Below are positions 23,785 through 40,655 of a stretch of 64,000 nt of DNA, piece by piece; the first letter of the stretch is position 1; each line of letters opens with the position of its first letter. The DNA lies in assembly GCA_016841065.1 (NCBI GenBank), contig JAENZW010000001.1, positions 6,502 to 70,501 on the forward strand, in the 5' to 3' direction. The stretch is from Actinomycetota bacterium (GTDB taxonomy: Bacteria; Actinomycetota; Coriobacteriia; Anaerosomatales; JAENZW01). The position numbers and the translations under genes were made by a program. Below the pieces are notes generated by a model. The model searched no databases and had not been told where the DNA came from. It worked only from the letters and a program-made list of their open reading frames with translations.

Positions 23785-26700
23785 TTCTCCGCCCGCCGCT
23801 TGGCTGTAGCTCTCACCCGAACAACCAGCACAGCCGCATCATCTCTCAACCGTCCAGGAACGAACCGTTCGAGAGCCGCCAGGAGACGCTTCTTCACTTC
23901 CTCCGTATCACCGCCGTAGCTGAGAGCACGTCGGACACGTCCCTCTCCGAAGAACTTATCCCCTCTCCTGGCCTCAGTAACGCCGTCCGTGAACAGAAGA
24001 ATCGTGTCGCCGCGCCGGACAGTCGTCCGCTCCTCGGTGTATCGGGCCTGCGGAACCGCCCCCAAGAGAGGACCAGTCGGCGACATGCGGTCCACGTCTC
24101 CGTCGGCCGCACGATACAGAAGCGCCGCGGGATGACCACCATTGGCGTATGAGAGGATTCCACGAGACACGTCGAGGAGCCCGACCCAGAGAGTGACGAT
24201 GTCGCTCGCTGTTCCCGCCTCCGCAACCATTCGGTTCACTTCAGCAAGCACCCGGGCGGGACCCAAACCCGCCGCAGCAAGACCACGGACGGAATACTTG
24301 ATCATCGACGTCTTCGTCGCAGCGGTGACTCCCTTGCCGCAGACATCCCCGATCGCAAGCATGATGGACCCATCCGGGAAGCGGAACATGTCGTAGTAGT
24401 CGCCGCCAATCTCCGCCTCATCACCGGCTGCGAGATAGATGGTGCTGGTCTCGACTTCTTCAAAGTCAGGAAGCGACTCGGGGAGGATGCTCGCCTGAAG
24501 CACGGATGCCACATTGTGCTCCCGGCTGTACATCTCTGCCGTGTCGATGGCCAGCGCAGCCTGGGACGCGAAGGTGTGCAGTAGCTCCATGTCCTCTTCG
24601 GTGTAGATGGCCACATCCGTCGCGAAGACAGTCAGCACACCCAGGCTCCGACCTCTGGCCAGCAAGGGAACCGCAATCGCCGCATGCAAGCCCTGACGCA
24701 CGGCGAGACGTGCAAGGCGTCCCACCGTGGACTCGAGATCATCGATGCATTGTGGCTTCCCCGAAGAGAACACCGCTCCGGCGATGTCGTCCCCGGGTGC
24801 GCACTTGAAGCGCACCATGTCCTGGGAAACGAGTCCCCTTGCCATGGCCGTTGTGATGCCGGAAGTGGTCGAGTCGATCGTCATGAGAGACACGGCGTCA
24901 GCCGAGAATATCTTCTGCACGACATCGAGCACGCGGTTGAGTACTACCTTGATCTGCAGGGATGAGCCGACCGCCTGACTGATACGGAAGATCGTCTCCA
25001 GGTTCGCCGCACGTCCGCGTGCCCGGTCGTAGTTGTATGCGATGTCGAGAGCGAGCGACACTTGCGCGGCGAAACCATCGGCGAGCCTGCGCTCCTTGTC
25101 GCCAAAGGGGGTGTTGCGCGCTGCGGATCGCATATACGCGAGCACTGCACCGGGCAGCCCGCCCCTCGTCGCCGTCGCAAGAAGAAGCTCACCTCCGCCG
25201 CGATTCGTTAGGAAGTCGTCGAGTGCATCGTCCTCGCCCAATCCCCCAATCACCGTAGCGAGCGTGTTCTCGTCGACGGCCAGGCGACCCCACACGCGCA
25301 GAAGCGCCGTCTCTTCGGCCGCGTCCGCCGCAGGCGCGATCCCCAACTCTCCTCGATCCATGATCGCGAACCCAACCCAATCCGCGTCAAGGATCTCTCG
25401 TGCAAGGGCATTCACGTCTCCGATGGCCACCTCGATGCCTACAGGACGAACCAGGAGCTCGGCTGCGGCACGCAATGTCTCCGCCTCACGCCGGGCAGCA
25501 GCCTCCATCTCGAAGAGACGGGAGTTGCGCACGGCGACCGCCGCCTGTGCCGAGAAGGCTCGCACCATGGCCCGCTCGGCCTCGGTGAAGGCTCTTCGGT
25601 CCGTCTCATACACGGCCACAACACCGACAGCGCCACGACCGACACGGAGGGCCGCAGCCAACCCCGTGAGCTCGGTGCCGGGAGCCAGCGCCAGCCCGCG
25701 AATCGTGGCAGTGTCCGCGACGAACTCGATGGGCTCATCAGACCGGAGCGCATCTGCAAGCCACGATTCATCGTCAGCAGAAGCCTGCATCTCGCACGCG
25801 TCGAAGCCCTGACATGCCACAAGACTCAAAACGCGCTCCTTCTCATCAAGCAGATACACCGCAACCCGTGTGCTCCCCAGGATGTGGCTCATGGCAGCGA
25901 GTATTCCGTTGAGCACCTGATCGAGACTCCGAGAGCTAGCCAGGAGTTGTGAGAGATCGCGCAGCGAGTTCAGCCGGAGCGCAACCTCGTTGAATGCGTC
26001 TGCGAGGCTACCCAGCTCGTCCGTTCGATCGCTGTATATCTGCTGTACGTATCCACCTCGCACAGCCGACCGCGCATGCGCCTCGAGATCCCTGATAGGC
26101 GCTACGAGACGTCTCGAGAACACGATGCCTACCGCTAGAGAGAATACGGCGCTCAACAGCAACGCCGCGACTGCAGGAGTGAGTGCCCGGATCGTCGCGC
26201 CCACAACAGCGGACCTTGGCTCCGCCAGCACAACCCTCCAGTCCAGACCCGGATAGTCTCCGACCGGCGAGTACTCGCCAGCCAGAACCGTTCCGTCGTC
26301 TGACACGGCTGTAGCCGCCCCGACCTCTCCCTCCCCGTACGGCTCGAACACCAGGGACCCGGCACTGACAGAAGGGCCTACCGAGCTCGTTGCAACAAGA
26401 CTGCCCACGGCGTCAGTGACCGCAATCCATCGCCCCTCACCGCCGGAGGAGAAGCCGTTGAGCAGAGCTTTCAACCACCCGGTGCGCACCCGTGCCGAAA
26501 CGATCAGTTCCCGGCTGGCGGTACGAACGCGTCGGGCAACCCACAGCTCGTTCTCGCCGGCGAAGACCACCCGGGCGCTTCCGTCCACCGCAGATTCGGC
26601 CAGCATCTGTCCTGGTAGGGAACTCACGACCCGTCCAGACGGAAGGGCGAGCAGTACCCTGTCAGGTCCTTCTGAGACTGCCAGACGGTCGATGTACTCG

Positions 26701-27071
26701 CCGCCAACCTCGAACTGCGCCGCGAGGGCATCCTCGTTCAGACCCTCGTCGGTCATCCCGATGACGATTCCACTCGCCCGGTCGATGATCTCGAAGGCCG
26801 CGTCAAGCCTGACCCCGATGGCGTCGATGGTTGCCTGGCGATACGCGGAGTGGCGCGCTGTCGCCTCGTCACGGGCGAGTGAGAAGACGCCGACAAGGGC
26901 GAAGATACTCACGACCGTGACCGAAACGCCGACCACGAGAATCAAGAGCACCATCAGGTTGTTGGCTAGGCTACTCCGGTTCGGACGACCGGCCATTGAG
27001 TACAGCTCCCCCTCACGGGCGCGATACATGCGTACCAATCGTACCGCCCGCGCGTGCGCCGCACCATCCAA
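23781..27071 (-). CDS. membrane sensor: extracytoplasmic domain-HAMP-GAF x3-PP2C (SpoIIE/RsbU-type) phosphatase
   Basis: 1096-aa ORF. Two TM helices flank a roughly 250-aa outside domain. HAMP (PIRDLEAHA...DELGSLADAFNEVA), three GAF-like blocks, and a C-terminal PP2C (IGGDYYD, AIGDVCGKGVTAA, LFTDGVTEA). The start could be the internal ATG near 26996. Confidence 0.82.
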   Translation of the reverse strand: MDGAAHARAVRLVRMYRAREGELYSMAGRPNRSSLANNLMVLLILVVGVSVTVVSIFALVGVFSLARDEATARHSAYRQATIDAIGVRLDAAFEIIDRASGIVIGMTDEGLNEDALAAQFEVGGEYIDRLAVSEGPDRVLLALPSGRVVSSLPGQMLAESAVDGSARVVFAGENELWVARRVRTASRELIVSARVRTGWLKALLNGFSSGGEGRWIAVTDAVGSLVATSSVGPSVSAGSLVFEPYGEGEVGAATAVSDDGTVLAGEYSPVGDYPGLDWRVVLAEPRSAVVGATIRALTPAVAALLLSAVFSLAVGIVFSRRLVAPIRDLEAHARSAVRGGYVQQIYSDRTDELGSLADAFNEVALRLNSLRDLSQLLASSRSLDQVLNGILAAMSHILGSTRVAVYLLDEKERVLSLVACQGFDACEMQASADDESWLADALRSDEPIEFVADTATIRGLALAPGTELTGLAAALRVGRGAVGVVAVYETDRRAFTEAERAMVRAFSAQAAVAVRNSRLFEMEAAARREAETLRAAAELLVRPVGIEVAIGDVNALAREILDADWVGFAIMDRGELGIAPAADAAEETALLRVWGRLAVDENTLATVIGGLGEDDALDDFLTNRGGGELLLATATRGGLPGAVLAYMRSAARNTPFGDKERRLADGFAAQVSLALDIAYNYDRARGRAANLETIFRISQAVGSSLQIKVVLNRVLDVVQKIFSADAVSLMTIDSTTSGITTAMARGLVSQDMVRFKCAPGDDIAGAVFSSGKPQCIDDLESTVGRLARLAVRQGLHAAIAVPLLARGRSLGVLTVFATDVAIYTEEDMELLHTFASQAALAIDTAEMYSREHNVASVLQASILPESLPDFEEVETSTIYLAAGDEAEIGGDYYDMFRFPDGSIMLAIGDVCGKGVTAATKTSMIKYSVRGLAAAGLGPARVLAEVNRMVAEAGTASDIVTLWVGLLDVSRGILSYANGGHPAALLYRAADGDVDRMSPTGPLLGAVPQARYTEERTTVRRGDTILLFTDGVTEARRGDKFFGEGRVRRALSYGGDTEEVKKRLLAALERFVPGRLRDDAAVLVVRVRATAKRRAEK

Positions 27072-27095
27072 CGTGCCGCAGTTCAGGCCTCGAGC

Positions 27096-27815
27096 CTACA
27101 CCTCTAGCGACGGTAGATACCGCCCGAGCCACGCCATGACCTCGGCGAGCCGTCCCGTCAACAGCAACGCGCCGATTGCCACGAGGAGCACGCCAGCAAA
27201 ACGATTGATGCCCTTCGAGTGGCGGGACAACCACCTGAGCAATGGGGTGACCTTGTTCAGGAGCAGGCTGGTCGCAACGAAGGGCAACGCAAGACCGAGA
27301 GAGTACACGAACAGGAGCCAGGCGCCCTGTGCGGCAGTCTCCCTCGTTCCGGCGAGCATCAGAATGGGACCGTACACCGGTCCCGCACACAGACCCATGG
27401 CCAGCGGAAACGCAAGTCCGAGCACGAAAGCTGCCACCGGCCCGAAGCGCCGGAATCGCGCAGCGTCGACGGACACACCGTGAAGCCACGGAATAGGGAG
27501 CACGTCGATAAGGATGATGCCGAGGAGTATCAGCGCAACGCCGATGACCCCGTCCAGCAGCGTCCGGTTGGACTCGAAGAACGAGCCGAGCACCGACGCG
27601 CTCGCGCCAAGGCCGACGAACACAATCGTGAAGCCGGCGACGAAAAGGAGCACCGGTCCCAGAATTCGCGCGATGCTGCGATCCTCCGCGGTGAGCTCGG
27701 TCAGAGACATCCCTGTCATGAAAGCGATGTACACCGGCACGAGCGGCAAGACGCACGGCGTGAGAAATGACAGGAGTCCAGCGACGAATGCCGCAGCTGG
27801 CCCTACATCCATCAA
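27096..27815 (-). CDS. ccdA: cytochrome c biogenesis / thiol-disulfide electron transporter CcdA (DsbD-family TM domain)
   Basis: 239-aa polytopic ORF with the FLTPCVLPLVPVYI motif (first conserved Cys) and a second Cys in GLCAGPVYGPI. Confidence 0.85.
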   Translation of the reverse strand: MMDVGPAAAFVAGLLSFLTPCVLPLVPVYIAFMTGMSLTELTAEDRSIARILGPVLLFVAGFTIVFVGLGASASVLGSFFESNRTLLDGVIGVALILLGIILIDVLPIPWLHGVSVDAARFRRFGPVAAFVLGLAFPLAMGLCAGPVYGPILMLAGTRETAAQGAWLLFVYSLGLALPFVATSLLLNKVTPLLRWLSRHSKGINRFAGVLLVAIGALLLTGRLAEVMAWLGRYLPSLEV

Positions 27816-27904
27816 AGTACCTCCAACATCAGAAACCGGTCTGAGTCGCCGAAGCGCCTCCGGAACTGTGTGGTCACCGGGCGCGTCGACTCTGGTGCAG
27901 TTTG

Positions 27905-27933
27905 AGTATACCCATGGGGGTATCGCATGACAA
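27905..27933 (-). promoter_or_regulatory. sigma-70-type promoter of ccdA with embedded CsoR-family-type operator
   Basis: Minus strand TTGTCA (27933..27928), 17-nt spacer, TATACT (27910..27905). The spacer contains ATACCCCCATGGGTAT (27908..27923). The 20-nt string tatacccatgggggtatcgc (27907..27926) is identical to 41025..41044. Confidence 0.65.
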
Positions 27934-27964
27934 ATCCCCTGCTGCGTTGCGACTGAGCATTAGT

Positions 27965-30604
27965 CTAGCGGAGTGTCGGCCTGAACCGGCGCAACAGCAG
28001 TGAGTTGGTCACAACGCTGACACTCGAGAACGCCATCGCCGCACCGGCCAGCCACGGTGCGCGTGACAGCAGACCGATCGCCGCAAGCGGAATGCCCAGC
28101 ATGTTGTAGCCGAGCGCCCACACGAAGTTTGCGCGTATCTTGCGCATCGTTGCCCGTGAGAGTTCGACCGCAGTGACCACGTCGCGAAGGTCGTTTCGAA
28201 TCAACACGACACCACCGGTCTCCATCGCGACATCGGTTCCGGCACCCATCGCGATGCCGACGTCCGACTGCGCAATCGCCGGCGTGTCGTTGATGCCGTC
28301 GCCAACCATGGCGACCTTGTTGCCCTCCTGCTGCAAGCGCTTGACCTCTTCGGCCTTGCGCTCGGGGAGGACTTCCGCGAGCACGCGGTCAGCAGATATG
28401 CCCGCCTGCGCAGCCACTGCCTCCGCTGTGCGGCGATTGTCACCCGTGATCATGTAGGCTTCGATGCCCATGCGAGACAGACGTGCGACAGCGTCGGCGC
28501 TATGCTCCTTGAGAGTGTCGGCGACGGCGAGAAGTGCTACGGCCGCGCCATCAACACCCAGGAACATCACCGTCTTGCCGTCGCACTCCATCGCAGACAC
28601 GCGCTCCTCGTACGCTGCGGCATCGACACTCTCCCGCTGCATCAAGGCCCGGTTGCCGAGCAAGACTCTTGCGCCCTGTACGATTCCCTCAACACCGTGT
28701 CCGGGTACGGCCGAGAAGCCCTCGACCGGCAGCAGCTCTGCTCCAGCCTCCTTCGCGGCAGCAACTATCGCCTCCGCCAGCGGATGCTCGCTCCCACGTT
28801 CAAGCGATGCGGCAAGCAGGAGTGCCTCTTCGGAAGGGATGGTGCCCAGCGGTTCGACATCGGTCACAACCGGCGCCCCGTACGTCAGGGTGCCTGTCTT
28901 GTCGAACACGATCGTACGGATCGACTCCGCTGTTTCGAGCGCTTCTCCACCCTTGATCAGGACGCCAAGCTCGGCACCTCTGCCCGTCCCCACCATGATT
29001 GCCGTGGGCGTGGCCAGGCCGAGTGCGCACGGGCACGCTATGACGACCGTTGCCGTGGCCGCAAGAAGGGCCGCAACGAACCAGCCGCTCGATGCCGCCG
29101 CGCTCAGTATCGGATGAAGTAGCGTAGCAGCGGCCCCGACATCCGGCACAGCGCCGAAGATCGCCGGTCCGGCGAAGAACCAGAACAAGAATGTAGTTGC
29201 CGACGTCGCCAGAACGACGGGAACAAACACGGCGCTTATTCGATCAGCGAAACGCTGAACAGGTGCCTTGGAACCCTGCGCATCTTCTACCAGCTTGATG
29301 ATCTGCGCGAGCGCGGTGTCCCTCCCGACTTTCGTAGCCCGGAACGTGAACGAACCGAGTTTGTTGACGGTCGCACCGATAACACCGTCGCCCTCGTTCT
29401 TCTCGACAGGAATCGACTCGCCGGTGAGCATGGATTCGTCGACGGCCGACGATCCCCGGGCAACCGTGCCGTCCACTGGAATCTTCTCGCCGGGCCGAAC
29501 GAGAACCAGGTCCCCTACGACGACCTGCTCCACCGGGATGTCGATCTCTTCGCCGCCGCGAAGCACTCGCGCCGTCTTGGCGGCTAGCCCCATGAGCTTC
29601 CGGATGGCATCGCCCGTGCGGCCCTTGGCCCTCGTTTCGAGCATCTTGCCGAAGAGGACGAAGGTGATGAGCAGCGCGCTCGTCTCGTAGAACACCGGCT
29701 CGCCTGTCAACCAGAACGTCGCAACCACGCTGTAAGCGAATGCGGCCGACGTGCCAACGGCGATGAGCGTGTCCATATTGCCCGTACGGCGCTGCAGGGC
29801 ATGCCAGAAACCGCGGTAGTACTGGGCTCCCGCGTAGAACTGAACCGGTGCGGCGAGGGCAAGCATGATGTACTTGTGCACCATCATCACCGCAGCCTCA
29901 CCTTCGAGGCCCAGCAGGCCGGCGACCCACATGGGAATCGCCTCCATGAACGGAGGGACCATCGCGATGAAGAACAGCGGGATGGCAAGAGAGGCGGAGA
30001 GCGTCAGCAGATTGCGCTGGTGGACGTAGTGCCGCTTCTGCGCCTGTCGCTGGACGTCGCGAGCGTCTGTCGAGCCGGGAGCGGAATCCTCAACGAGGAC
30101 GGTCGCCCCGTACCCCGCACCCTTGATGATCGTGATGATCTCGTCCGGGCCGATCACTGTCGGATCGATCGTGACAGTGGCACGCTCAAGTGCGAGATTG
30201 ACCACGGCCTGCTCGATTCCGGGCTGGCGCTGCAAGGTCTTCTCGACGACAGCGACGCATGAGGCGCACGTCATCCCTGTTACGGCCAGTGTCACAGTCC
30301 CCGAGACGCTCGCCGTGGCATTCTCCACGAGCTCCGTGGCGCCATAGCCAGCCGACTTGACCTTCGCGACGATCTCCGCGACATCTAGAACGGCCGGATC
30401 GTAGCGTACGTTCAGTCGCTCAGCAGCCAGGTTGACCGAGGCATCGTCGACGCCTTCGGCCTTGCCCAGGGTCTTCTCGATCACCGCAGCGCACGATGCG
30501 CAGGTCATGCCTGTTACGGCGAATGTTGCTTCTCGTTCCGCCGTGGCCGAATCCGTAGATGGCTCGTCTTGCCGAATCGTGTCGGTAGCATCTATGTCGC
30601 CCAT
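27965..30604 (-). CDS. copA: copper-translocating P1B-type ATPase with two N-terminal HMA domains
   Basis: ORF track 27965..30739. Start trimmed to ATG 30604 because the longer form overlaps the upstream gene. Two GMTCASC metal-binding domains, a CPC motif ([11 protein letters not shown]), DKTGTLT and GDGINDTPA. Confidence 0.92.
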
Positions 30605-30698
30605 GTCACGGGTCCTCAATCGCCGGCGTGCTCTCACTGAGACGCGCCGAATATGGTCGGTATCGAATACCTCGCGCGAACCGGAACCGCAGGCGCCG

Positions 30699-31259
30699 CT
30701 ACTGGACGACGAGCGTCCCGAAGACCATCTCCATGCCACAGGAGAAGCCGTACGTTCCTGGCTCCAGCGCTGGCAGGGTCACAGTCGCGCCGCCGTTCGT
30801 GAGGTCTTCCAGAACACCGAACTGCGGGAACTGAACCTCGGCAAGACAGCCGCTCCCCTGTCCGAAGACGATCTCGATGGGCACGCCGGACTTCGCCGTG
30901 ATCGCGTTCGGGTTGAAGGATCCTTGCGAGACGTCGACCGCGATGCGCTGGACGCCTGCATCAAGCACCGTCGCGCCCTCGATGGTCTCCGTCGATCCTC
31001 CGCAGCACGAGCCGCCTTCCGCGTCTCCGCATGCAGCGCTACCCGAGCTTCCGCCGGAGCGGTCAACTGCGGCTCCCTGGGCACCGTTGCCGGTCCCACG
31101 AGATTCTGCGATCGCTATCTGAGGGTTGCCGGCGCGCTGCGAAGCGAAGCCGTACGCCACTCCGAAGGCAAGAACCACAATGACTCCGATAAGCAGCAAC
31201 CGCGTTCGCGAATTCGTCGTGTATGCAGACTGTGAGATGGGCTCCTGATCTTCGGTCAT
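30699..31259 (-). CDS. membrane-anchored cupredoxin_1-like domain protein
   Basis: Start trimmed to ATG 31259 (GAGAGGA SD). One TM, a Cys/Gly-rich linker ([14 protein letters not shown]), then ...[16 protein letters not shown]...[18 protein letters not shown]. It is paralogous to the C-terminal domain of the 31590..32870 product. Confidence 0.75.
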
Positions 31260-31284
31260 GCTCGCGTGATCCTCTCTTCGTGGG

Positions 31285-31506
31285 CTATGCCTCGGAGGCC
31301 TCGTAGCCGGCGGCGCGAACTGCGCCGACGATTGCCTCCACGTCAACGGCTTCGGCATCGAACTCGACAACCGTCTCGCCCGTCGCGTAGTCCGTCTTCA
31401 CTTCCTTCACCCCGTCGAGATCCCCGACGGTCATGTCGACGAGCATAGCGCACGAATGGCAGTGCATGCCCGTCGTCTGAAGCTTGACCTGCTTCGACTC
31501 ACTCAT
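31285..31506 (-). CDS. copZ: heavy-metal-associated (HMA) domain copper chaperone
   Basis: Start trimmed to the ATG at 31506 (AGGAGG 7 nt upstream). Translation MSESKQVKLQTTGMHCHSCAMLV..., a ferredoxin-like HMA fold with an M-x-C-x-x-C variant (MHCHSC). Confidence 0.85.
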   Translation of the reverse strand: MSESKQVKLQTTGMHCHSCAMLVDMTVGDLDGVKEVKTDYATGETVVEFDAEAVDVEAIVGAVRAAGYEASEA

Positions 31507-31558
31507 TCCCATTCCTCCTGGCCCTAGGTGGCTCGTTGGGCTCTTCTTCGGCAACATA

Positions 31559-31574
31559 TGCGAGGCTCATGCCA
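31559..31574 (-). promoter_or_regulatory. sigma-54 (-24/-12) type promoter upstream of copZ
   Basis: Minus strand cTTGGCATgagccTCGCAtat. GG and GC are spaced exactly as in TGGCAC-N5-TTGCA, with two mismatches (C to T at -24, T to C at -12). It lies 53 nt upstream of the copZ ATG, in the 83-nt gap after the DsbD_2 gene. Confidence 0.55.
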
Positions 31575-31589
31575 AGAATCGGTCAGCCG

Positions 31590-32870
31590 CTAGTTTGCAG
31601 CCCCGCCGAGAAGATACCCAGCAATGACGGCGGCAACCACCGCGCCGACAGCGAGCGCTAGCTCGGCTTGCGTCAACCCCAGGATGCGAGGCACGCTCGC
31701 CGCGACCGCTCGCGAGTCGGCCGGACACGAATCGCCCGATCGCGACCTGCTCTTTCGCGTCAACGAATAGCCGACGATCGCCACCAGCAAGCCCCCGATG
31801 CCCAGACCCAGCAACGGGCTGCCTGAAATACCGGACGCAGCTTCGCCCGCAATGATTCGCCCAGACATCATCCCCATGCCGCATGTCAGTGTGTAGCTGC
31901 CTTGCGGCGTCGCCGGCAGGTCGACCACTGTCGTGTCGAAGGGCTTCAGGTCTTCGAGAACTCCCATCTGCGGAACGGCTATCTGATCGGAGCACGCGTT
32001 GTCTTCCCGCCGCTCGACCAACAGCCTCACAGGCCTGTCCGCCGGCACCTGGAGCACTTGGGGCACGAACCGCGTGTTCTCTATCAGGAGCGAAACCTCC
32101 GCGACGCCATCTTCGGCAACCTTGAAATCGAGAGGGCCCGCTTCCGGTGCGCCCAGGACGACCTGTTTGGCAGACTGAAAGGTGATTGGCGAGCCAACGA
32201 GCATCGACCCACGGTCGAAGACCACGAGCCCGAGGGCGATGACAACGACCGCAGCTGCGAGAGTCATGCGCTTCTTGAACGTGGAACCGAGATAGCCAGA
32301 TCCGACACCCATCACGATCATCAGCGGGGCCGTGCCCAGACCGAACCCGAGCATCGCGGTCGCGCCGGCGATGGCGCTTCCCGTTCCCGCCGCCGAGAGT
32401 TGAGCTGCCTGCAGTGGCGCACAGGGCATCAGGCCCGTGAGGAGACCGAATGTGATGGGGGTGGCAATCCGCACGCCTCCCGCCTTGGCTTCACTCATTG
32501 CCTTCCGGCGGTTCTTCGCAATGGCGTCCGTGAGAGCCTTCGGTGGCTTGAGGGTGAGCCGTCGTAGCAGGGGAAACCGGCCAGTCATGTTGATGCCCAG
32601 CACTACCATGAAGAGGCCAGCGAACAACATCACCCATCCGCGAATCCCCGCCAGATCGAAGGCTGCCCCGATCGCTCCGAGCACGAGTCCTACCGTGACG
32701 TAGCTGAGGATCTTTGCGGCCTGGTAGGCGGCATGCGGCTTCAGGCGGTCCATAAGAGGCCCGTCGACGCCGTCTTTGACGGCGTAGGTCACTACGATGG
32801 CACCGCACATGAAGACACAGTGCACGCTGGTGACCAGACCCAGTCCCAGCATGGTAAGGAAGCTGTCCAA
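31590..32870 (-). CDS. DsbD_2 / TauE-SafE-like membrane protein fused to a cupredoxin_1-like domain and a C-terminal TM tail
   Basis: ORF track 31590..32999. Start trimmed to TTG 32870 (GGAG 6 nt upstream; ATG 32852 is an alternative). SVHCVFMCG motif in TM1, about 6 TM helices, then ...NACSDQIAVPQMGVLEDL...GSYTLTCGMGMMSGRII. Confidence 0.75.
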   Translation of the reverse strand: MDSFLTMLGLGLVTSVHCVFMCGAIVVTYAVKDGVDGPLMDRLKPHAAYQAAKILSYVTVGLVLGAIGAAFDLAGIRGWVMLFAGLFMVVLGINMTGRFPLLRRLTLKPPKALTDAIAKNRRKAMSEAKAGGVRIATPITFGLLTGLMPCAPLQAAQLSAAGTGSAIAGATAMLGFGLGTAPLMIVMGVGSGYLGSTFKKRMTLAAAVVVIALGLVVFDRGSMLVGSPITFQSAKQVVLGAPEAGPLDFKVAEDGVAEVSLLIENTRFVPQVLQVPADRPVRLLVERREDNACSDQIAVPQMGVLEDLKPFDTTVVDLPATPQGSYTLTCGMGMMSGRIIAGEAASGISGSPLLGLGIGGLLVAIVGYSLTRKSRSRSGDSCPADSRAVAASVPRILGLTQAELALAVGAVVAAVIAGYLLGGAAN

Positions 32871-32881
32871 CCGTCGCTCCT

Positions 32882-33244
32882 CTATATGTTGTGGAAGTCC
32901 GGTGACGACAACGGTAGCTGCGTGTCGCACTCGAGCAGGGCCCCGCAGTGTGGACACATGCGCCAGTCTGTCAGGATGGAGCCACCGCACGCTGCGCACT
33001 CGGAGGTCGCCACAGGAGTCTCGTCCTCCCGCTCATCACTCGACCTGCCGCCCAGAAGCACCAACGTGATGGCGCCAATCAGAATCCCCGCGACCAGAGG
33101 AACCAGCCACCCAAGCCGTGCGAAGGCACTCTGAGAGTCTGCGTACGTGCCCTCCGCGGCGAAGAACCACGCCGCGAGACCACCCGCCAGCGCGAACGCC
33201 AGCGAGGCAATCAGAGCGAGTCTCTTCGTACGAACTTGGCGCAT
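32882..33244 (-). CDS. small membrane protein with a C-terminal zinc-ribbon (CxxC...CxxC)
   Basis: ORF track 32882..33493. Start trimmed to ATG 33244 because the longer form overlaps the EBP gene. Two TM helices, then SECAACGGSILTDWRMCPHCGALL. First gene after the sigma-54 promoter. Confidence 0.6.
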   Translation of the reverse strand: MRQVRTKRLALIASLAFALAGGLAAWFFAAEGTYADSQSAFARLGWLVPLVAGILIGAITLVLLGGRSSDEREDETPVATSECAACGGSILTDWRMCPHCGALLECDTQLPLSSPDFHNI

Positions 33245-33284
33245 GTGGGCCACCCAGGAGGAGGACGCAGGTGGCCAGAGAAGT

Positions 33285-33300
33285 TGCAAGGGCTGTGCCA
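33285..33300 (-). promoter_or_regulatory. sigma-54 (-24/-12) promoter, full consensus match
   Basis: Minus strand cTTGGCACagcccTTGCAa, which is TGGCAC-N5-TTGCA. It sits in the 68-nt gap between the NtrC-type activator gene and the Zn-ribbon gene, 41 nt upstream of ATG 33244. Confidence 0.8.
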
Positions 33301-33312
33301 AGAAACCGGACT

Positions 33313-34662
33313 CTACAAGCCGAGGCGATTCATGCGAGCCTCGAGCGTCTTCGTGGTGAGTCCGAGGAGCTTCGCAGCCTTGGGCGCGTTGCCCCCTGCC
33401 CTGCTCAGCGCCTGGCGCACGAGATCGAGTTCCACTTCCTCCAGATCGCAACCCTCTTCGGGGAGTGACATCCCCGTCTGCGAGCTCTCGCAAGAGGACG
33501 CGCCCAGTCTAACCTCTGCCGGAAGGTCCGCGAGCGTGACCACATCGCCCGGGGCGAGAATCAAGATGCGCTCGATCGTGTTCTCGAGCTCGCGAATGTT
33601 GCCTGGCCACCTGTATGTAGCGAGAGCCTCCATGGCCTCTGAAGAGATCTTCCGCTCTCCGGCGTTCAACTTCTCAAGGAAGTGCGCCACCAGGAGAGGG
33701 ATGTCACTCATTCTCTGCCGCAGGGGCGGTATCTGCAGGGGCACCACGTTCAGGCGGTAGTAGAGATCCTCCCTGAACATTCCGTCAGAGATGAGTTGCT
33801 GGAGATCCTGGTTCGTCGCGGCGATCACGCGAACATCCACCTCAATGGTACGTGTGCCACCCAGCCGCTCGAACTCGCGCTCCTGCAAAACGCGCAGAAG
33901 CTTGACCTGAGTTGCCAGGGAGATGTCCCCGATTTCATCGAGGAACAGCGTCCCGCCGTTTGCCAGCTCGAAGCGTCCGGGTTTCGCCGCCATCGCCCCG
34001 GTGAAGGCACCCTTCTCATAGCCGAACAGCTCACTCTCGAGGAGCGTCTCGGGGAGCGCTCCCGCGCTCACCGACACGAACGGCTCGTCCGCACGTTGGG
34101 ACAGCGCGTGCAACGCTCGCGCGACGAGCTCCTTGCCAGTGCCTGACTCCCCATAGATGAGGACTGTTGCGTTCGTGGGTGCGACCCTGTGAACGGAGTC
34201 GAGCAGTTCGAGCATCGCAGAATCCGCCGCAACGATTCCCTCGACGTCGTACTCCTTGTCGATTTCCTCGCGTAGGCGCTCGACCTCCGCCGCGAGGTTG
34301 CCTATCCGGATCGCTTTGTCGATGGCGATCTTGAGTTCCTCGAGATCAAACGGTTTCGTCAGATACTCCGTTGCCCCCGCCTTCATGGCCTCTACCGCGA
34401 GCGCAACGTTCCCGTGCGCCGTCAGCATGATGATGGGGAACGTGTGGCCGTCGGCGCGCAGTCTCCGCAGCACTTCCATGCCATCGGGCGCTGGCATCTT
34501 GTGATCGAGGACGAGGATATCGGGGATCTGATCGGACACCGAGGCGATAGCCTCCTTGCCATCCACCGCCTGGACGACTTCGAATCCCTCACCCTCAAGC
34601 GCCTGTGCGAGAACCCAGCGCATGTTCTTCTCGTCGTCGGCGACAAGCACCCGTCGCTTCAT
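33313..34662 (-). CDS. sigma-54-dependent response regulator (NtrC/ZraR-type enhancer-binding protein)
   Basis: 449-aa ORF. REC domain (VLVADDE...LVLDHKMP), AAA+ domain with Walker A (GESGTGKE) and the GAFTGA loop (ESELFGYEKGAFTGA), and a C-terminal HTH (GGNAPKAAKLLGLTTKTLEARM). Confidence 0.92.
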   Translation of the reverse strand: MKRRVLVADDEKNMRWVLAQALEGEGFEVVQAVDGKEAIASVSDQIPDILVLDHKMPAPDGMEVLRRLRADGHTFPIIMLTAHGNVALAVEAMKAGATEYLTKPFDLEELKIAIDKAIRIGNLAAEVERLREEIDKEYDVEGIVAADSAMLELLDSVHRVAPTNATVLIYGESGTGKELVARALHALSQRADEPFVSVSAGALPETLLESELFGYEKGAFTGAMAAKPGRFELANGGTLFLDEIGDISLATQVKLLRVLQEREFERLGGTRTIEVDVRVIAATNQDLQQLISDGMFREDLYYRLNVVPLQIPPLRQRMSDIPLLVAHFLEKLNAGERKISSEAMEALATYRWPGNIRELENTIERILILAPGDVVTLADLPAEVRLGASSCESSQTGMSLPEEGCDLEEVELDLVRQALSRAGGNAPKAAKLLGLTTKTLEARMNRLGL

Positions 34663-36215
34663 TCGCTCACTCCTCGATCGATTGCGTGTTCTTCGGACAC
34701 CGGAATCTCAACAATGAACGTAGTCCCATCCGAGGTGCTGTCGACTTCGATATGCCCATCATGAGCGTCGATGATTCGGTGCACGATCGTCAGCCCGAGC
34801 CCGGTTCCATCATCCCGTGTGGAGTAGAAGGGATCAAAGATCTTGCCTGTGGCTTCGGGTGGAATGCCGGGGCCGGTGTCGGCTACTACTACCTGCACGT
34901 AGTCCTCGTCGTACGAGGAGGAGAGTGTTATCTCCCCTCCTTCCACTTCCATCGCCTGCACAGCGTTGGTCACGAGGTTCAAGAACACCTGCTTGAGTTG
35001 GTCGGGGTCGGCAACGACATCCGGCAGGCTACCGTCGTACTCCTCGATGATCCTAACGCTCGCCTGCTTCGCAAATCGCTTGGTGAATAGCACGACATCC
35101 CGAAGAACGTCCTCCACGTCGGTGCTCACGAACGTAGGCTTCGAGGGTCTTCCGAAGTCAAGAAGTGCCTTGATGACCCGATCGAGTCGGTCGATCTCCT
35201 GCTTGACTATGTCAGTTGCCTCTCTCATCCGCTCATGATCGCCGCCAGCCTCTTCAATCAGCTGCACAGACGCACGAATGATCCCGAGCGGGTTCCTGAC
35301 CTCGTGGGCTACGCCAGCGGTCAGCTCTCCCATTGCGGCCAGGCGATCAGCGCGAATCAGCTGCTCAGTAAGCGACTGAACTTCGGACATGTCCTCCATC
35401 GTCACAACCGCACCGAACGTGCGACCACCTACTGCGCGCATCCGAGACGTAGAGACCTGTACTTGCAGTTGTTTGCCACCCCGAGTTCGAATGCCGATCT
35501 CTCTCAACACGAGCGGTACACGCCCGGAGAGCACGCGTGTGAGATCCGAATCGAGGCCCCCGTCGTCGGCCAGAATCTGCACAAGCGGCTTGGGAACCAT
35601 CTCGTACTCGCTCATGCCAAGCATTCGCTCGGCAGCCGGATTCGCGGTCGCGACCGATGCGTCGGGCCCGACCGTCAGTACCGCGGAGGTGATGGAGCGT
35701 AGGATCGACTGTGTGTAGTCCTGGATGTTGATGAGCTGGATAGCCCGTTCCTCAAGCTTGCGGTATGCGTCCTCGAGGCGTTCACTCACCTGACGCAGGT
35801 CACGCGTCTTGCCTTCCTCCATATCGCGAAGCGCCCCGAACAGCGTGCCGATGATCACATACATGACGATTTCAAGGCCGTTGTCGGCGTGCTCGCCAGT
35901 GAGTCCTCCAAGGGCCATCTGCGCGTGCATGCCGAAGGGAATCGCCGCGGCGAGCGCCGTCAGGAAGCCGCCCCTCCTTCCGAAGACGAATGCCGCATAC
36001 AGGATCGGCACGTAGTAGAGACGACGGTAGAGGAGGTGAATCGCCGCACTCTCGGCTACAGAATCCGTATACAGATGTAGAGCCGTGACGACAAACAGCA
36101 TCGCGCCGATGATGGCGACAACGCGCAGGTCCTGAATACGATTGACCTCGTCGCGCTGGTCAACGACCGGACGACTCTCATCAGCAGCCGCTGTCACCGT
36201 CGCCTCCGAGCCCAC
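34659..36215 (-). CDS. sensor histidine kinase (N-terminal 4-TM domain, PAS, HisKA, HATPase_c)
   Basis: 518-aa ORF. H-box (ELTAGVAHEVRNPL), N-box (LVTNAVQAM), G1 (DTGPGIP) and G2 (GTGLGL). The stop overlaps the EBP ATG (ATGA). The start overlaps the rpoN 3' end (GTG 36215, or the GTGA overlap at 36197). Confidence 0.88.
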   Translation of the reverse strand: MGSEATVTAAADESRPVVDQRDEVNRIQDLRVVAIIGAMLFVVTALHLYTDSVAESAAIHLLYRRLYYVPILYAAFVFGRRGGFLTALAAAIPFGMHAQMALGGLTGEHADNGLEIVMYVIIGTLFGALRDMEEGKTRDLRQVSERLEDAYRKLEERAIQLINIQDYTQSILRSITSAVLTVGPDASVATANPAAERMLGMSEYEMVPKPLVQILADDGGLDSDLTRVLSGRVPLVLREIGIRTRGGKQLQVQVSTSRMRAVGGRTFGAVVTMEDMSEVQSLTEQLIRADRLAAMGELTAGVAHEVRNPLGIIRASVQLIEEAGGDHERMREATDIVKQEIDRLDRVIKALLDFGRPSKPTFVSTDVEDVLRDVVLFTKRFAKQASVRIIEEYDGSLPDVVADPDQLKQVFLNLVTNAVQAMEVEGGEITLSSSYDEDYVQVVVADTGPGIPPEATGKIFDPFYSTRDDGTGLGLTIVHRIIDAHDGHIEVDSTSDGTTFIVEIPVSEEHAIDRGVSE

Positions 36216-37594
36216 GAAGGCTCGATGCCGATCTCCTCGCGATACTTGGCAACGGTGCGACGGGCAACGGTAACGCCTTCCACGCGCAGAATCTCAACAA
36301 GCTTCTGGTCGGACATCGGATGCCGATCGTCCTCTTCGCGTACTAGTTCCTTGATGCGTTGCTTCACGCTCGTGGCCGCCACATCAAAGCCCGTCCGCGT
36401 TCTGTAGCCGCCCGAGAAGAAGTGCTTCAGTTCAAAGAGCCCGTATGGTGTGGCCATGTACTTTCCGGTAACGCCTCTGCTGATCGTTGAGAGATGTACC
36501 CCGAGTTCGACTGCAACATCCTCGAGCCTCAGCGGTCTCAGAAGGCCCCTTCCGTCCTCGAAGAACTCCGCCTGTACCTCCAGGACAGTCTGGGTGATGC
36601 GACTAACGGTGTCCTTGCGGCGATCGATATTCCGAATGAAGCTCTCAGCCGAGCGAATCTTGTCCTTCAGATACCGTTTGGTCTCGTCGTCAGTCCCCGA
36701 GCCCGTGCGGAGCATTCGACGATACCGTACGCTCACCCGCAGCGTCGGTATCGACTCGTTGTTCGGCGTGATAACCCACTCGTCGTCGAACCGCCGAATC
36801 GTCACATCCGGAACGATGTAGCCAGGCGAAGGGCCCGGCGAGAAAGCGCCGGCTGGACGCGGGTTGAGCGTCCGGAGAACCTCTACAACACGCCGCACCT
36901 CATCCTCGTCCGTCTTCAGAGACCGTGCGACCTTTCGGAAATGGCTCGCTGCGATGTCATCGAGGTGATTGCGTATGATTCCTTCCAGCAGAGGTTCTTC
37001 GAGCCCGAGGTACGTGGCTTGTATAAGAAGTGCCTCCGCCAGGTCACGGGCGGCCACACCGGGTGGGTCGAGGAGCTGGACTACCCCGAGGGCCTCCTCG
37101 GCCTCCTCGGGGGTAACGCCGACCTGCGCCGCGATCTCCGCGCAGTTGCCCACGAAGAACCCGTCGTCATCCAGCGATCCGATAACCGCGCGAGCCGCTC
37201 TGTCGACGCTCTCCGTGATGGTGATCAGCGCGAGCTGCTCGAGCAGGTACTCGTCGAAGGACTGAATGCCGCCGACAAACTCCTCGGTGTTCACCACATC
37301 CGCATTGGGATCGCGGGGAGCGCTGAGGTCCATCGACTCGAGATCGTCGTACATGTCGAGCCACTCTTCCCAGGCCTGATCTTCCTCGGAAGACTCATTG
37401 GGCTCATCATCACTCGCGGTCTCACTGTCGTCCGTGTCGGGCTCGTCGAGCTCGAGAACAGGGTTCTCAAGCATCTCGACCTCAACAAGCTGCTGGAGCT
37501 CGGCGATGGGCATAGCGAGTATGTTCAGACCCTGATAGACCTGCGGCGAGAGTGTTACCTTGTGCCGCAGCTCGGGTCGCTGGCTGAGCTCCAC
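36194..37594 (-). CDS. rpoN: RNA polymerase sigma-54 factor
   Basis: 466-aa ORF. Gln/Leu-rich region I (LSPQVYQGLNILAMPIAELQQLVEVEMLENPVLE), an acidic region II, and a C-terminal HTH plus RpoN box (ARRTVAKYRE). GTG start with GGGAGG upstream. Confidence 0.92.
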   Translation of the reverse strand: MELSQRPELRHKVTLSPQVYQGLNILAMPIAELQQLVEVEMLENPVLELDEPDTDDSETASDDEPNESSEEDQAWEEWLDMYDDLESMDLSAPRDPNADVVNTEEFVGGIQSFDEYLLEQLALITITESVDRAARAVIGSLDDDGFFVGNCAEIAAQVGVTPEEAEEALGVVQLLDPPGVAARDLAEALLIQATYLGLEEPLLEGIIRNHLDDIAASHFRKVARSLKTDEDEVRRVVEVLRTLNPRPAGAFSPGPSPGYIVPDVTIRRFDDEWVITPNNESIPTLRVSVRYRRMLRTGSGTDDETKRYLKDKIRSAESFIRNIDRRKDTVSRITQTVLEVQAEFFEDGRGLLRPLRLEDVAVELGVHLSTISRGVTGKYMATPYGLFELKHFFSGGYRTRTGFDVAATSVKQRIKELVREEDDRHPMSDQKLVEILRVEGVTVARRTVAKYREEIGIEPSWARRRR

Positions 37595-37714
37595 GTCTCG
37601 CCTCCCGTCGCGATGTGCACCCTATCCGGCCGCACCGCGGGCGCGGCCCCTAGCAAACTATATACCACCTCTTCCCTCATTCATGACGAAGCGTCGCCAG
37701 AATGTGCATCCCGG

Positions 37715-38686
37715 TCACGCGACTGGGGGTATCTGCTCCTCCAACCGAGACGATAGTTGGACCAGGAGGATGGCGGCCAGCACCACGACGCCTCCGACTA
37801 TCTGAAGTGCGTCGAATCTCTCCTGGAGCGTTGTCCAGGCGATGATCCCGGCCAACACGGGCTCAAGCGTCGATGTGACCACGGCCTTCGTCGCGTCAAT
37901 GTAGTGAAGCGCCTTGAGCGACGCTGCGAAAGGAACGATCGTGCCGACGAGACCCAGGTACACAACCGCGACGACTCCTGCGGTCGAACGATACGCATCG
38001 AGAATGGGCGCCCAGCCGCCAAGGTAGACGAGCCAGAAGACCGTGGCGAATCCAAGACCGTATGCGAGCAGAGTCCATGGCGAGAACCGCGTGGATGCCC
38101 ACTTGCCCATCAGTTGATAGAAGGCAAACACCACGGCAGCAGCAAGCCCCCAGGCCACGCCAGCGGGCGAAACCTCAAGGCCACCTTCGCCGAACGCGCC
38201 AACCACGAGCGCACAACCCCCTACCGAGAGGAAGACACCCACCGGCAGAACCCACGTCAGCTTCTCGGAGAGGAACAACACCGAGACGACGAGCACTATT
38301 ACCGGGGCAAGGTACTCCAACAGAACGGCAGTGGCCACGTTCGAATACGAGATCGCCTGATAGTAGGCAGCATGCAGTCCGGCCATTCCTACGACTCCGA
38401 AGACGGCGAGCACCGGGATGTCTCGGCGTGTCACCTTGAATGCTCGCGGTCGCCTTATGAGCAGGTAGACCGCCAGGAGTACGAACGCGGTCGCGGCCCG
38501 CGCCCCGGCCAGCGCGGTTGGGCTCATGGTGATGCCGGGGGGCTGAACGACCCAGCCTGACGTCATCTCGCCGGCTGGTGTCATGATCCACTTCGCGACG
38601 ACGCCACTCGTTGCCCAGCACGCAGCGGCGAGCGTCGCGAGTGCGTAGCCTCGCCACGTCTCTGATGCGCCATGACGCTCAGACAA
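37715..38686 (-). CDS. EamA/DMT-superfamily transporter
   Basis: ORF track 37715..38785. About 10 TM helices in two EamA repeats. Start trimmed to TTG 38686, which overlaps the CDF stop (cTTGTCTGA). The start is uncertain. Confidence 0.75.
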   Translation of the reverse strand: MSERHGASETWRGYALATLAAACWATSGVVAKWIMTPAGEMTSGWVVQPPGITMSPTALAGARAATAFVLLAVYLLIRRPRAFKVTRRDIPVLAVFGVVGMAGLHAAYYQAISYSNVATAVLLEYLAPVIVLVVSVLFLSEKLTWVLPVGVFLSVGGCALVVGAFGEGGLEVSPAGVAWGLAAAVVFAFYQLMGKWASTRFSPWTLLAYGLGFATVFWLVYLGGWAPILDAYRSTAGVVAVVYLGLVGTIVPFAASLKALHYIDATKAVVTSTLEPVLAGIIAWTTLQERFDALQIVGGVVVLAAILLVQLSSRLEEQIPPVA

Positions 38687-39623
38687 GTCCCGCGTCCATC
38701 TCTTCGGCAGTCTGCCGGGCTTCGTAGGCGTCGTACGGTTCCACGTGGGCGATGACATCCAACACCTGCGGAAACGCCTCCGCAACCGCGCGTTCGACGG
38801 TCTCGGCTATGGCGTGGGCAGCTTCCACCGGAATCGAGCCGTCGACCTGCACGTGCAGATCGACGTACACGTCTGTGGGTAGTCCGCGGGTACGCACACG
38901 ATGGCATCCGAGGACGCCAGGGACCGAGCACACGACCGCTGCTACCGCCGGTGGCGGAATGCGCACGCTGTCAGACAGAGTCTCTCCGGCCTGCCTGAAG
39001 ACCTGGAGCGCCGCGAAAGCGATGCTTACCGCAACGAGAAGTGCAATCACCGGATCCGCGATGGGATAGCCGAGACGAACCGCGACCAGACCAAGAATGA
39101 CACCGAGGCTCACATAGACATCGCTCATCGTGTGACTTGCGTCCGCAATGAGTATCTCGCTCCCGAGCCTCTTCCCCGCTCGACGCTCGAAGACGGTCAC
39201 ACCTGTGTTGACGCAGATGGTGCCGATCATGACGACGAACGAAATCGCGGTGACGTCTGCCGGCTCGACGCCTCGAACGAGCTCTCTGATCGCAGTACCA
39301 CCCACGTTGTAGGCGGCAACGGCTAGCATCGCGCCGATAGCGGCTGACGCGTACGTCTCGTACTTACCGTGTCCGTAGGGGTGGTCCCTGTCCGCCGGTC
39401 GACCGGCGAGCGCAAGGCCGAACAGCCCGATGACGTTTGATGTCCCATCGAACATCGAGTGGAAGCCGTCCGCCTGCATGGCCACCGACCCGGAGGCAAG
39501 ACCCCAGCCTAGCTTCGCCACAGCCACGAGCACGTTCAGGCCCAGAACGACCCAGAGCACGCGACGCACCGCTCGTGTGCGCTCGGAAGTGGTGGATTCT
39601 GACGATTGTCGTTGGTATCCCAT
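38679..39623 (-). CDS. cation diffusion facilitator (CzcD/ZitB-type) metal efflux transporter
   Basis: 314-aa ORF. Six TM helices with HSMFD (TM2) and HTMSD (TM5) metal-site motifs, and a C-terminal cytoplasmic domain. Confidence 0.88.
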   Translation of the reverse strand: MGYQRQSSESTTSERTRAVRRVLWVVLGLNVLVAVAKLGWGLASGSVAMQADGFHSMFDGTSNVIGLFGLALAGRPADRDHPYGHGKYETYASAAIGAMLAVAAYNVGGTAIRELVRGVEPADVTAISFVVMIGTICVNTGVTVFERRAGKRLGSEILIADASHTMSDVYVSLGVILGLVAVRLGYPIADPVIALLVAVSIAFAALQVFRQAGETLSDSVRIPPPAVAAVVCSVPGVLGCHRVRTRGLPTDVYVDLHVQVDGSIPVEAAHAIAETVERAVAEAFPQVLDVIAHVEPYDAYEARQTAEEMDAGLV

Positions 39624-39647
39624 TCGTCCACCCCGCGATAGACAAAC

Positions 39648-39681
39648 TTGCTCAGCATACCCCAGGGGGGTATAGTCTCAA
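39648..39681. promoter_or_regulatory. back-to-back sigma-70-type promoters (csoR-like gene / CDF gene) sharing one CsoR-family-type operator
   Basis: Plus strand: TTGCTC (39648..39653), 17-nt spacer, TATAGT (39671..39676). Minus strand: TTGAGA (39681..39676), 16-nt spacer, TATGCT (39659..39654). The inverted repeat ATACCCCAGGGGGGTAT (39657..39673) lies in both spacers. Confidence 0.6.
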
Positions 39682-39725
39682 TAGCCTGCCTGCCCATGAT
39701 AACCCCATTCGTCGAGGGAGCGATC

Positions 39726-40022: not shown

Positions 40023-40031
40023 GGACTCGCG

Positions 40032-40430: not shown

Positions 40431-40448
40431 CGGAGTGCGTCGCTATGC

Positions 40449-40652
40449 TCAACCAAACGCCCCGGGTCCGCACGTCCGAGACCCCCGGGAGTCGGACCCG
40501 GAACCCGTCCCGAGAATCCCGCCGCCGAATCCGACACCGACGTTCACGGAACCGCACTTGGGACAGATCTTGTCATCGTCACGCAGTAGGCGCATGACGA
40601 ACCTGTCGAACTTCTCTCCGCAATCCTTACACGTGAGGTCGTAGGTAGGCAA
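40449..40652 (-). CDS. FmdB-family zinc-ribbon protein
   Basis: 67-aa ORF, MPTYDLTCKDCGEKFD...CPKCGS, followed by a Gly-rich tail. This is the canonical FmdB/CxxC-x-CxxC layout. Confidence 0.8.
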   Translation of the reverse strand: MPTYDLTCKDCGEKFDRFVMRLLRDDDKICPKCGSVNVGVGFGGGILGTGSGSDSRGSRTCGPGAFG

Positions 40653-40655
40653 CGA

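Follow-up and report, generated by a model that had tools for sequence, protein, structure and literature searches.

A conserved sigma-54 operon with -24/-12 promoter elements in the Anaerosomatales (Actinomycetota), adjoining a copper-handling gene cluster

Introduction

A 64,000-nucleotide stretch of contig JAENZW010000001.1 (assembly GCA_016841065.1), hereafter the window, comes from an actinobacterium of the Anaerosomatales. On its minus strand it carries rpoN, the gene for sigma-54, followed by genes for a sensor histidine kinase and an NtrC-type activator and then, behind a promoter of the -24/-12 type, by a run of genes for copper handling. This locus, its counterparts in related genomes and the proposal that a dedicated sigma-54 module here drives Cu(I) detoxification are the subject of this article.

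The Anaerosomatales form an order of the Coriobacteriia, phylum Actinomycetota, and were described in a paper that mentions neither sigma factors nor copper (PMC9686372). Two comparative surveys deny the Actinobacteria at large this sigma factor, stating that they 'lack the Sigma-54 system' (PMC3162934) and that the group 'effectively lacks a functional RpoN', with a rationale based on GC content (PMC12316311). The comparisons below draw on a scan limited to one genome per species, which gave 279 relatives; the best 80 loci of the 279 were compared. These 80 belong to as many species, all of them Anaerosomatales, and their activator orthologues are 73-84% identical to that of the window. In all, the activator orthologues make up more than 100 clusters at 74-84% identity, whose source names, where given, are Coriobacteriia, Anaerosomatales or Actinomycetota.

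Sigma-54, Its Kinase and Its Activator

The rpoN gene (36194..37594, minus strand) encodes a protein of 466 aa with the three domains of sigma-54, Sigma54_AID, CBD and DBD (PF00309, PF04963 and PF04552), each above its Pfam cutoff, and with an RpoN box, ARRTVAKYR; against the NCBIfam equivalog TIGR02395 it scores 392.5 bits (cutoff 277). The kinase (34659..36215, minus strand) has an N-terminal segment of multiple transmembrane (TM) helices with short loops, weakly matching DUF4118, followed by PAS, HisKA and HATPase_c domains. The activator (33313..34662, minus strand) shows the domain set of NtrC-class enhancer-binding proteins: Response_reg (REC, PF00072), the AAA+ domain Sigma54_activat (PF00158), AAA_lid_14 (PF25601) and HTH_8 (PF02954). 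Its translation contains the GAFTGA motif, within '...EKGAFTGAMAAKPGRF', as well as Walker A (GESGTGKE) and Walker B (FLDEIG) motifs, and its nearest structures are those of Aquifex NtrC1/NtrC4, NtrX and ZraR. The window as a whole holds one bacterial enhancer-binding protein (bEBP) and one rpoN.

The original prediction, which was made from the letters of the window and did not recognise the host as an actinobacterium, had joined the three genes into one minus-strand unit with the sigma factor gene embedded in it. Both points hold: rpoN and the kinase gene share 22 nt, provided that the kinase begins at its first GTG, the kinase and activator genes overlap by 4 nt (ATGA), and rpoN is part of the module in essentially all relatives. 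An exact-protein look-up of the activator returned no record, and a plasmid search gave only distant matches to Azospirillum bEBPs. Nothing points to a mobile element; the base composition shows no anomaly, GC being even across the window at ~0.60-0.65.

Promoter Elements and Their Conservation

Directly behind the activator gene lies P2 (TGGCACagcccTTGCA; 33285..33300, minus strand). The activator ends with TAG at 33315..33313; 12 nt past the stop come TGGCAC (33300..33295) and then TTGCA (33289..33285), and the next ATG, at 33244, follows 41 nt later. The complete TGGCAC-N5-TTGCA that had been predicted at this place is confirmed. Judged by the defining features of a sigma-54 promoter, namely GG and GC 10 nt apart, correctly oriented and upstream of a gene, P2 is exact, and two further elements, P1 ahead of rpoN and P3 ahead of copZ, are variant matches. 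TGGCAC-N5-TTGCA occurs exactly once in the window on both strands (0.02 occurrences are expected from shuffles), and no one-mismatch copy was found elsewhere in the window.

The element is also where it should be in the relatives. TGGCA[C/T]-N5-TTGC stands 7-84 nt past the activator stop in 79 of the 80 loci, with diverged flanks and a conservation profile of tTGGCAca...cTTGCAc; a position weight matrix (PWM) made from the P2 sites of the related loci gives the copy in the window 28.7 bits. The sole locus without P2, L026, is also without the Zn-ribbon gene that normally comes next: in this natural variant (11348..11433) copZ directly follows the activator gene. Nor are equally good -24/-12 matches frequent at random positions in the related loci, 1.54 Mb in all, where the relaxed pattern TGG[CT]A[CT]-N5-TTGC[AT] has 148 matches on both strands, 78 past the activator gene, 67 ahead of rpoN and 3 elsewhere; 145 of the 148 thus fall at two fixed positions.

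P2 very probably functions as a sigma-54 promoter on which the adjacent activator acts. If it were not functional, the cop genes would be read through from the rpoN operon or transcribed from an unrecognised sigmaA promoter. Such an account can point to the position of P2, only 12 nt from the activator stop with no terminator found between the two, on account of which some read-through is likely in any case, and to the lack of a detected enhancer. It is nonetheless highly improbable, against a perfect consensus kept in 79 of 80 species within unconserved intergenic DNA and at a variable distance from the stop codon, and against the uniqueness of P2 in the window and its place beside an intact sigma-54 gene and a GAFTGA activator.

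P1 (TGGTATatagtTTGCT; 37652..37667, minus strand), which the original prediction did not contain and which is newly seen here, lies ~58 nt ahead of the rpoN start and overlaps an extended -10-like TGnTATAnT. An alignment of 150 nt upstream of rpoN from 75 loci (74 related ones and the window) has GGTA[CT]-N5-TTGC[AT] (TGGTAY-N5-TTGCW) in 73 of them, with a median distance of 47 nt from its end to the start codon. The profile is gTGGTAta.t.TTTGCt, in which only TGGTA and TTTGC are conserved to at least 90%, and P1 and P2 have a common register and the same invariant positions, TGG.A......TTGC. TGGTAT is an accepted variant of the -24 half, as in the Klebsiella nifH promoter. Loci L071 and L073 have no such element ahead of rpoN and carry GGGGATAAT in its place.

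P1 is probably used by sigma-54, and a competing account, in which it is a sigmaA extended -10 promoter and nothing else, rpoN lacks autoregulation and dependence on sigma-54 is confined to P2 alone or to P2 and P3, appears possible but doubtful. That account draws on the fit of TGGTATAnT to the extended -10 consensus, which can be read in the -24 half of P1 in 48 of the 73 loci, on the separate CATAAT or GAATAT just upstream in some loci of the TGGTAC type, and on the bootstrapping problem that an rpoN gene wholly dependent on sigma-54 would face. It has to contend with the TTTGC that lies 5 nt past the hexamer, at least 90% conserved and in the exact -12 register of P2; with the remaining 25 of 73 loci, which keep TGG...TTGC without any TAnnnT hexamer in that register; and with the near absence of the combined pattern from the rest of the 1.54 Mb. 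Moreover, sigma-54 promoters ahead of rpoN are predicted in several classes of other phyla and documented in Geobacter and Dokdonia (PMC12316311). Our own reading is that P1 combines two overlapping promoters, one for sigmaA that would supply basal expression and one for sigma-54 that would supply positive feedback. P1 would then imply sigma-54 autoregulation of rpoN, possibly overlapping the sigmaA extended -10; autoregulation alone is not new, given the records of such promoters elsewhere (PMC12316311).

P3 (TGGCATgagccTCGCA; 31559..31574, minus strand), likewise new, is weaker, at 17.5 bits the second-best PWM match in the window. It lies 16 nt past the stop of the DsbD_2-cupredoxin gene and is followed by a proper Shine-Dalgarno sequence, AGGAGG (31519..31514), and the copZ ATG (31506). 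The 1.54 Mb contain four secondary PWM matches of at least 15 bits, all 48-61 nt ahead of copZ and all with the same TCGCA variant, and loci L001, L002, L007 and L049 also have GG-N10-GC ahead of copZ, at lower score. P3 is a feature of a subclade, and it would fit an internal promoter through which sigma-54 raises the expression of copZ and the later genes.

An upstream activating sequence (UAS) for the activator was sought near P1 and P2 and not found. The regions upstream of the two elements share no k-mers, and in a codon alignment of 81 activator genes the synonymous sites of the last ~70 codons are unconstrained; the only dip, a modest one at codons 357-368, corresponds to a universally conserved bEBP motif with GC3-biased codons and was rejected as a sign of a UAS inside the 3' coding region of the activator. 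In a subset of loci (e.g., L028, L036, L039 and L061) an intergenic motif, ~AATCTCCGCAGGT / ~CACAATCTCCGCAGGT, lies 35-50 nt upstream of P1; ~CACAATCTCCGCAGGT resembles the coding sequence of the EamA C-terminus (...CCNCCNCAGGA-stop) and may be the relic of a gene end instead of a regulatory site. A conserved 5'-UTR hairpin was also considered and discarded: none follows P1 or P2, with a mean z of ~0 against shuffles. An Rfam scan of 23000..41000 returned nothing but a sub-threshold snoRNA match.

Genes Behind the Promoter

Five genes, all on the minus strand, follow P2 in the window, and they are those that had been predicted. The first (32882..33244; first gene after P2 in nearly all loci) encodes a membrane protein with two TM segments and a C-terminal CxxC...CxxC zinc ribbon. 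A DsbD_2-Cupredoxin_1 fusion comes next (31590..~32852, its start being uncertain), identified from Pfam and its translation, with NAC...CGMGM in its cupredoxin part. It is followed by CopZ, an HMA metallochaperone with the sequence GMHCHSC (31285..31506; Pfam and NCBIfam), by a cupredoxin of the CupA type, a Cu(I) chaperone in which a TM segment stands at the N-terminus and the motif reads GSGC...CGMEM (30699..~31256; Cupredoxin_1 and a match to CupA), and by CopA (27965..~30604), a Cu(I) exporter of the P1B-1 ATPase class whose N-terminal part comprises two HMA domains.

CopA has the full set of P1B-1 motifs, ACPCALG (CPC), GYNMLG (YN) and MAFSS (MxxSS), together with two GMTCASC, and scores 606 bits against the Cu-type P1B model TIGR01511 (cutoff 397). 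The standalone cupredoxin matches Streptococcus pneumoniae CupA (2MRY/4F2E) with E=1e-10 in phmmer and 4F2F, the cupredoxin metal-binding domain of S. pneumoniae CopA, with E=1e-8; its Cu(I) ligands align as SGCL...FSCGMEM with SPCL...FACGMNM of CupA, giving the Cys...CxMxM pattern. Because the P1B-1 signature of CopA, the match to CupA and the NAC...CGMGM of the fused cupredoxin agree, the cargo in this window can be assigned, from its motifs, to Cu(I)/Ag(I).

The Module in the Order

Gene order, determined by tblastn over the 80 loci, is nearly invariant: a csoR-like gene pointing away from the rest, then genes for a cation diffusion facilitator (CDF) and an EamA transporter, rpoN, kinase, activator, Zn-ribbon protein, CopZ, CcdA and a GAF-PP2C phosphatase. 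In the window the CDF gene (38679..39623) and the EamA/DMT transporter gene (37715..38785), both on the minus strand, lie between the csoR-like gene and rpoN. One or both are absent in some loci, and the csoR-like gene is then still divergent from whichever gene leads, in L083 and L062 from rpoN itself. The even GC and the order-wide synteny mark the module as an ancestral feature of the Anaerosomatales, as opposed to an island gained recently.

What follows P2 is more variable. Inspection of open reading frames in unassigned gaps showed the Zn-ribbon membrane protein and an HMA protein with GMHCxSC to be near-universal. The cupredoxin is frequent, with the Cys/Met ligands missing in some species. 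CopA was found by tblastn in only 8 of the 80 loci and the DsbD_2-cupredoxin fusion, at a query coverage of at least 50%, in 6 (L001, L007, L032, L046, L056 and L075); the fusion is also present in L083-L085, which came from look-ups of CopA homologues. Additional genes are always inserted between the activator gene and ccdA, in several different orders. Since CopA, the CupA-like cupredoxin and the DsbD_2-cupredoxin occur in a minority of loci, they are lineage-specific insertions, and the copper operon is an expansion, in this lineage, of an older module.

In L013, L024 and L049 the cupredoxin after copZ is without Cys...CxMxM (e.g., '...FTCALGTVSG' and '...FTSGHGTVSG'), and in such species it may have lost Cu(I) binding or switched function. 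One relative, the complete genome OW818687.1, has two unlinked cop clusters (L081, 4636..9982, and L082, 3680..9931) with the gene set of the window; these clusters also hold small Met/Cys-rich membrane proteins (e.g., CRMVGCSMDMSGGMGFMH) and DUF7282 proteins.

A Repressor Regulon Around the Module

The csoR-like gene (39726..40022, plus strand; PF02583, 88 bits) encodes a repressor of the CsoR/RcnR family, as judged from the PF02583 fold, the Cys/His ligands and palindromic operators with G/C tracts. A conserved Cys is combined with H-x3-H-x4-C, a clean fit to neither the CsoR pattern (H-x3-C) nor that of RcnR, and the NCBIfam matches to RicR, FrmR and RcnR are all below cutoff.

The palindrome ATACCCC-N2-4-GGGGTAT is found upstream of the csoR-like gene in 70 of 73 loci and immediately ahead of ccdA in at least 24; there is a third conserved place beyond csoR. 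The window has all three. Operator 1 (39657..39673) overlaps a sigma70-like promoter facing the CDF gene, operator 2 (ATACCCCCATGGGTATA; 27907..27923) overlaps TTGTCA-17-TATACT facing ccdA, and operator 3 (41025..41040) lies upstream of a thioredoxin gene, the first in thioredoxin-(DUF302-like). No CsoR-type operator stands ahead of the Zn-ribbon gene, copZ or copA in the window.

This distribution disposes of two candidates: CsoR as direct regulator of the cop genes of the window, its operators being at ccdA, CDF and trx only, and membership of ccdA and the GAF-PP2C gene in the sigma-54 operon, ccdA having a sigma70-like promoter of its own under a CsoR-type operator. The boundary lies at 27905..27933 (minus strand), where the sigma70-like TTGTCA-17-TATACT and operator 2 precede ccdA. 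Because no operator precedes the Zn-ribbon gene, copZ or copA and ccdA has its own, the sigma-54-driven unit is predicted to span P2 to the end of copA (27965), in agreement with the lower limit given in the original prediction, with ccdA opening a separate, repressor-controlled unit. That the sigma-54 module is nested in this way inside a CsoR-type regulon is likewise new. On the other side, transcription of the CDF-EamA unit, which is under CsoR control, could continue into rpoN.

Beyond ccdA lie a large HAMP-GAF-GAF-PP2C phosphatase of the SpoIIE/RsbU-like kind (23781..27071, minus strand) and then a STAS and HATPase_c_2 fusion (22963..23784, minus strand). The two look like a partner-switching module; as almost every related locus keeps them in synteny with ccdA, the pair may belong to the unit under CsoR-type control.

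Relation to Known Systems

In Myxococcus xanthus, CorSR is likewise an NtrC-type, sigma-54-dependent two-component system located beside its targets, which include, as here, a PF13473 cupredoxin protein and a Cu P1B-ATPase (CopA); the curA operon is copper-induced and has four putative sigma-54 promoters along the cluster (PMC3707914). It differs in several respects. In CorS, a signal peptide and a single TM segment go with a periplasmic sensor and HAMP, whereas the kinase here combines a multi-TM N-terminus with PAS and has no HAMP; corSR lies inside the target operon with rpoN elsewhere, whereas here the two-component genes are upstream of the promoter and linked to rpoN; and Myxococcus has many bEBPs. 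There is no multicopper oxidase here, unlike in the CorSR/curA system, and P1 ahead of rpoN, the actinobacterial host and the interleaved CsoR-type regulon set the two further apart. With its DUF4118-like TM + PAS kinase and its regulatory genes outside the copper operon, the present locus is not a CorSR-type system.

Escherichia coli ZraSR (HydHG), in the account cited in PMC12316311, is a metal-responsive NtrC-type system with sigma-54 promoters that autoregulates its own operon. The AAA+ domain of ZraR (1OJL) is a close structural relative of that of the activator here, but the pair is not ZraSR: it scores 200 bits against the ZraS model NF007688, where 479 are required, and 407 against 760 for ZraR (NF007689), and it differs in that neither a periplasmic sensor of the ZraS type nor the target ZraP is present and in that rpoN of E. 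coli is unlinked. The best-scoring named NCBIfam family for both proteins is AtoSC, and this identity too was rejected (AtoS NF008468, 354 vs 646 bits; AtoC NF008469, 487 vs 714 bits); the targets of AtoSC, in acetoacetate catabolism, are unrelated to metal handling here. As no score comes near its equivalog cutoff, the two proteins are best treated as an unnamed NtrC-class pair, nearest to AtoSC, then to ZraSR and NtrBC.

Sigma-54 systems with one activator were reported only in Borrelia and Chlamydia, and the rpoN neighbourhood in other phyla is conserved but quite different (Francke et al., 2011). In the Hk2-Rrp2-RpoN system of Borrelia and CtcBC of Chlamydia, sigma-54 is paired with a single activator, as a dedicated switch and not as a global regulator; the present system, with its one activator in the window, may be alike in this. 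Their targets, rpoS and developmental genes, respectively, are unrelated to the cargo here, and in neither group is rpoN known to belong to the operon of the kinase and the activator. The copY-cupA-copA operon of S. pneumoniae and CsoR-copZA follow the same cargo logic, with a CupA-type cupredoxin and/or CopZ feeding CopA; they are controlled by a one-component repressor, CopY or CsoR, at sigmaA promoters, whereas the cop genes here lie behind a sigma-54 promoter.

Sigma-54-dependent copper control is therefore not itself new, CorSR being the precedent, and the original claim that the arrangement was undescribed has to give way to that published sigma-54/NtrC copper system (PMC3707914). It survives for the dedicated rpoN-kinase-activator operon kept across an actinobacterial order. 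Three things are new: a sigma-54 system that is complete and evidently under selection throughout an actinobacterial order, an rpoN-kinase-activator operon with sigma-54-type promoters at both ends, and its nesting in a CsoR-type regulon. The conservation of sigma-54, the activator and -24/-12 promoters in ~80 species at ~62% GC argues against both the stated absence of the system (PMC3162934; PMC12316311) and its explanation by GC content, and the high specificity of the promoter pattern, with 145 of 148 matches at two sites, further weakens both.

A Model for Sigma-54-Dependent Copper Control

The identities of the genes, the promoter elements and their conservation, the boundary of the operon and the Cu(I) specificity of the cargo were obtained by computation, and they provide the parts of a model. 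Basal expression of rpoN, kinase and activator would come from the sigmaA extended -10 that overlaps P1 and/or from read-through out of the CsoR-controlled CDF-EamA unit. On a signal, most likely Cu(I)/Ag(I) or else a thiol/metal stress closely tied to it, the membrane/PAS kinase would phosphorylate the NtrC-type activator, whose AAA+ ring would remodel the closed sigma-54 holoenzyme at P2 (33300..33285). The transcript would encode the Zn-ribbon protein, the DsbD_2-cupredoxin, CopZ, the CupA-like chaperone and CopA; P3 ahead of copZ would probably raise the distal genes, and P1 ahead of rpoN would provide positive feedback on sigma factor, kinase and activator. The gene ccdA and those after it would be transcribed apart from this, by sigmaA and under repression by the CsoR-family protein encoded nearby. 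We infer, in contrast, that P1-P3 are served by the adjacent activator, and likewise what the signal is, that there is feedback and how basal expression arises.

We assign a probability of about 0.6 to the reading that a dedicated sigma-54 module, ancestral to the Anaerosomatales, here drives a Cu(I) detoxification operon; that its signal is copper or a related thiophilic metal we consider a little better than an even bet. Several findings count against this reading. In most species the cargo consists of the Zn-ribbon protein and CopZ, with the exporter absent. The unlinked cop clusters of OW818687.1 have only degenerate -24/-12 matches, AGGCATgcgatTCGCT and TGGCACgatggTTGTT, at the expected place. 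P1 can in about two thirds of species be read as a plain extended -10 sigmaA promoter, no UAS came to light near P1 or P2, and a CsoR-family sensor in the same locus could carry part of the metal response. The kinase itself, finally, gives no sign of a metal sensor: its N-terminal region, a proposed place for metal ligands, has no recognisable metal-binding domain and, among 76 orthologues, no conserved Cys. Copper is proposed as the kinase signal on the strength of the cargo. His residues 47, 60 and 97 in the membrane-embedded N-terminal region are each ~80% conserved among the 76 orthologues and are candidate metal ligands.

The sensor and the order-wide cargo together raise the question whether the module is real but answers to something other than metal: a membrane, envelope or thiol-redox signal or redox stress perceived by PAS, with CopZ and CopA recruited to it and cytosolic metal left to the CsoR-family protein. 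A DUF4118-like membrane bundle joined to PAS and a cargo without exporter would suit such a signal, as would the setting of the locus amid thiol-redox genes (CcdA, thioredoxin and DsbD_2) and a CsoR-type regulon. We nevertheless hold a non-metal signal to be unlikely: the sole near-universal cargo gene of known function encodes an HMA/CopZ metallochaperone, the genes added behind P2 are always copper genes (CopA, CupA-like and DsbD_2-cupredoxin), and NtrC-type metal systems have precedents in CorSR and ZraSR. Of the copper-responsive module first proposed, then, the Cu(I)-specific cargo stands for the window, and it does not extend to the order, where the common cargo is Zn-ribbon and CopZ only.

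Implications

A bolder proposal, which we advance tentatively and would not wager on, is that sigma-54 of the Anaerosomatales is single-purpose: rpoN, kinase and activator, each present once, would make up a self-amplifying operon with a regulon of only two or three promoters, all at this locus, acting as an ECF-like switch for Cu(I) or thiophilic metals under a CsoR-family repressor with flanking operators. If true, the Actinomycetota would have here their first functional sigma-54 system, and a genome of 62% GC would offer a natural minimal sigma-54 circuit.

For copper efflux, the locus would add a second case, phylogenetically distant from CorSR, of control by sigma-54 instead of CopY, CsoR or CueR. 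And as a small, probably self-amplifying sigma-54 circuit, it may be usable as a minimal system for study or reuse.

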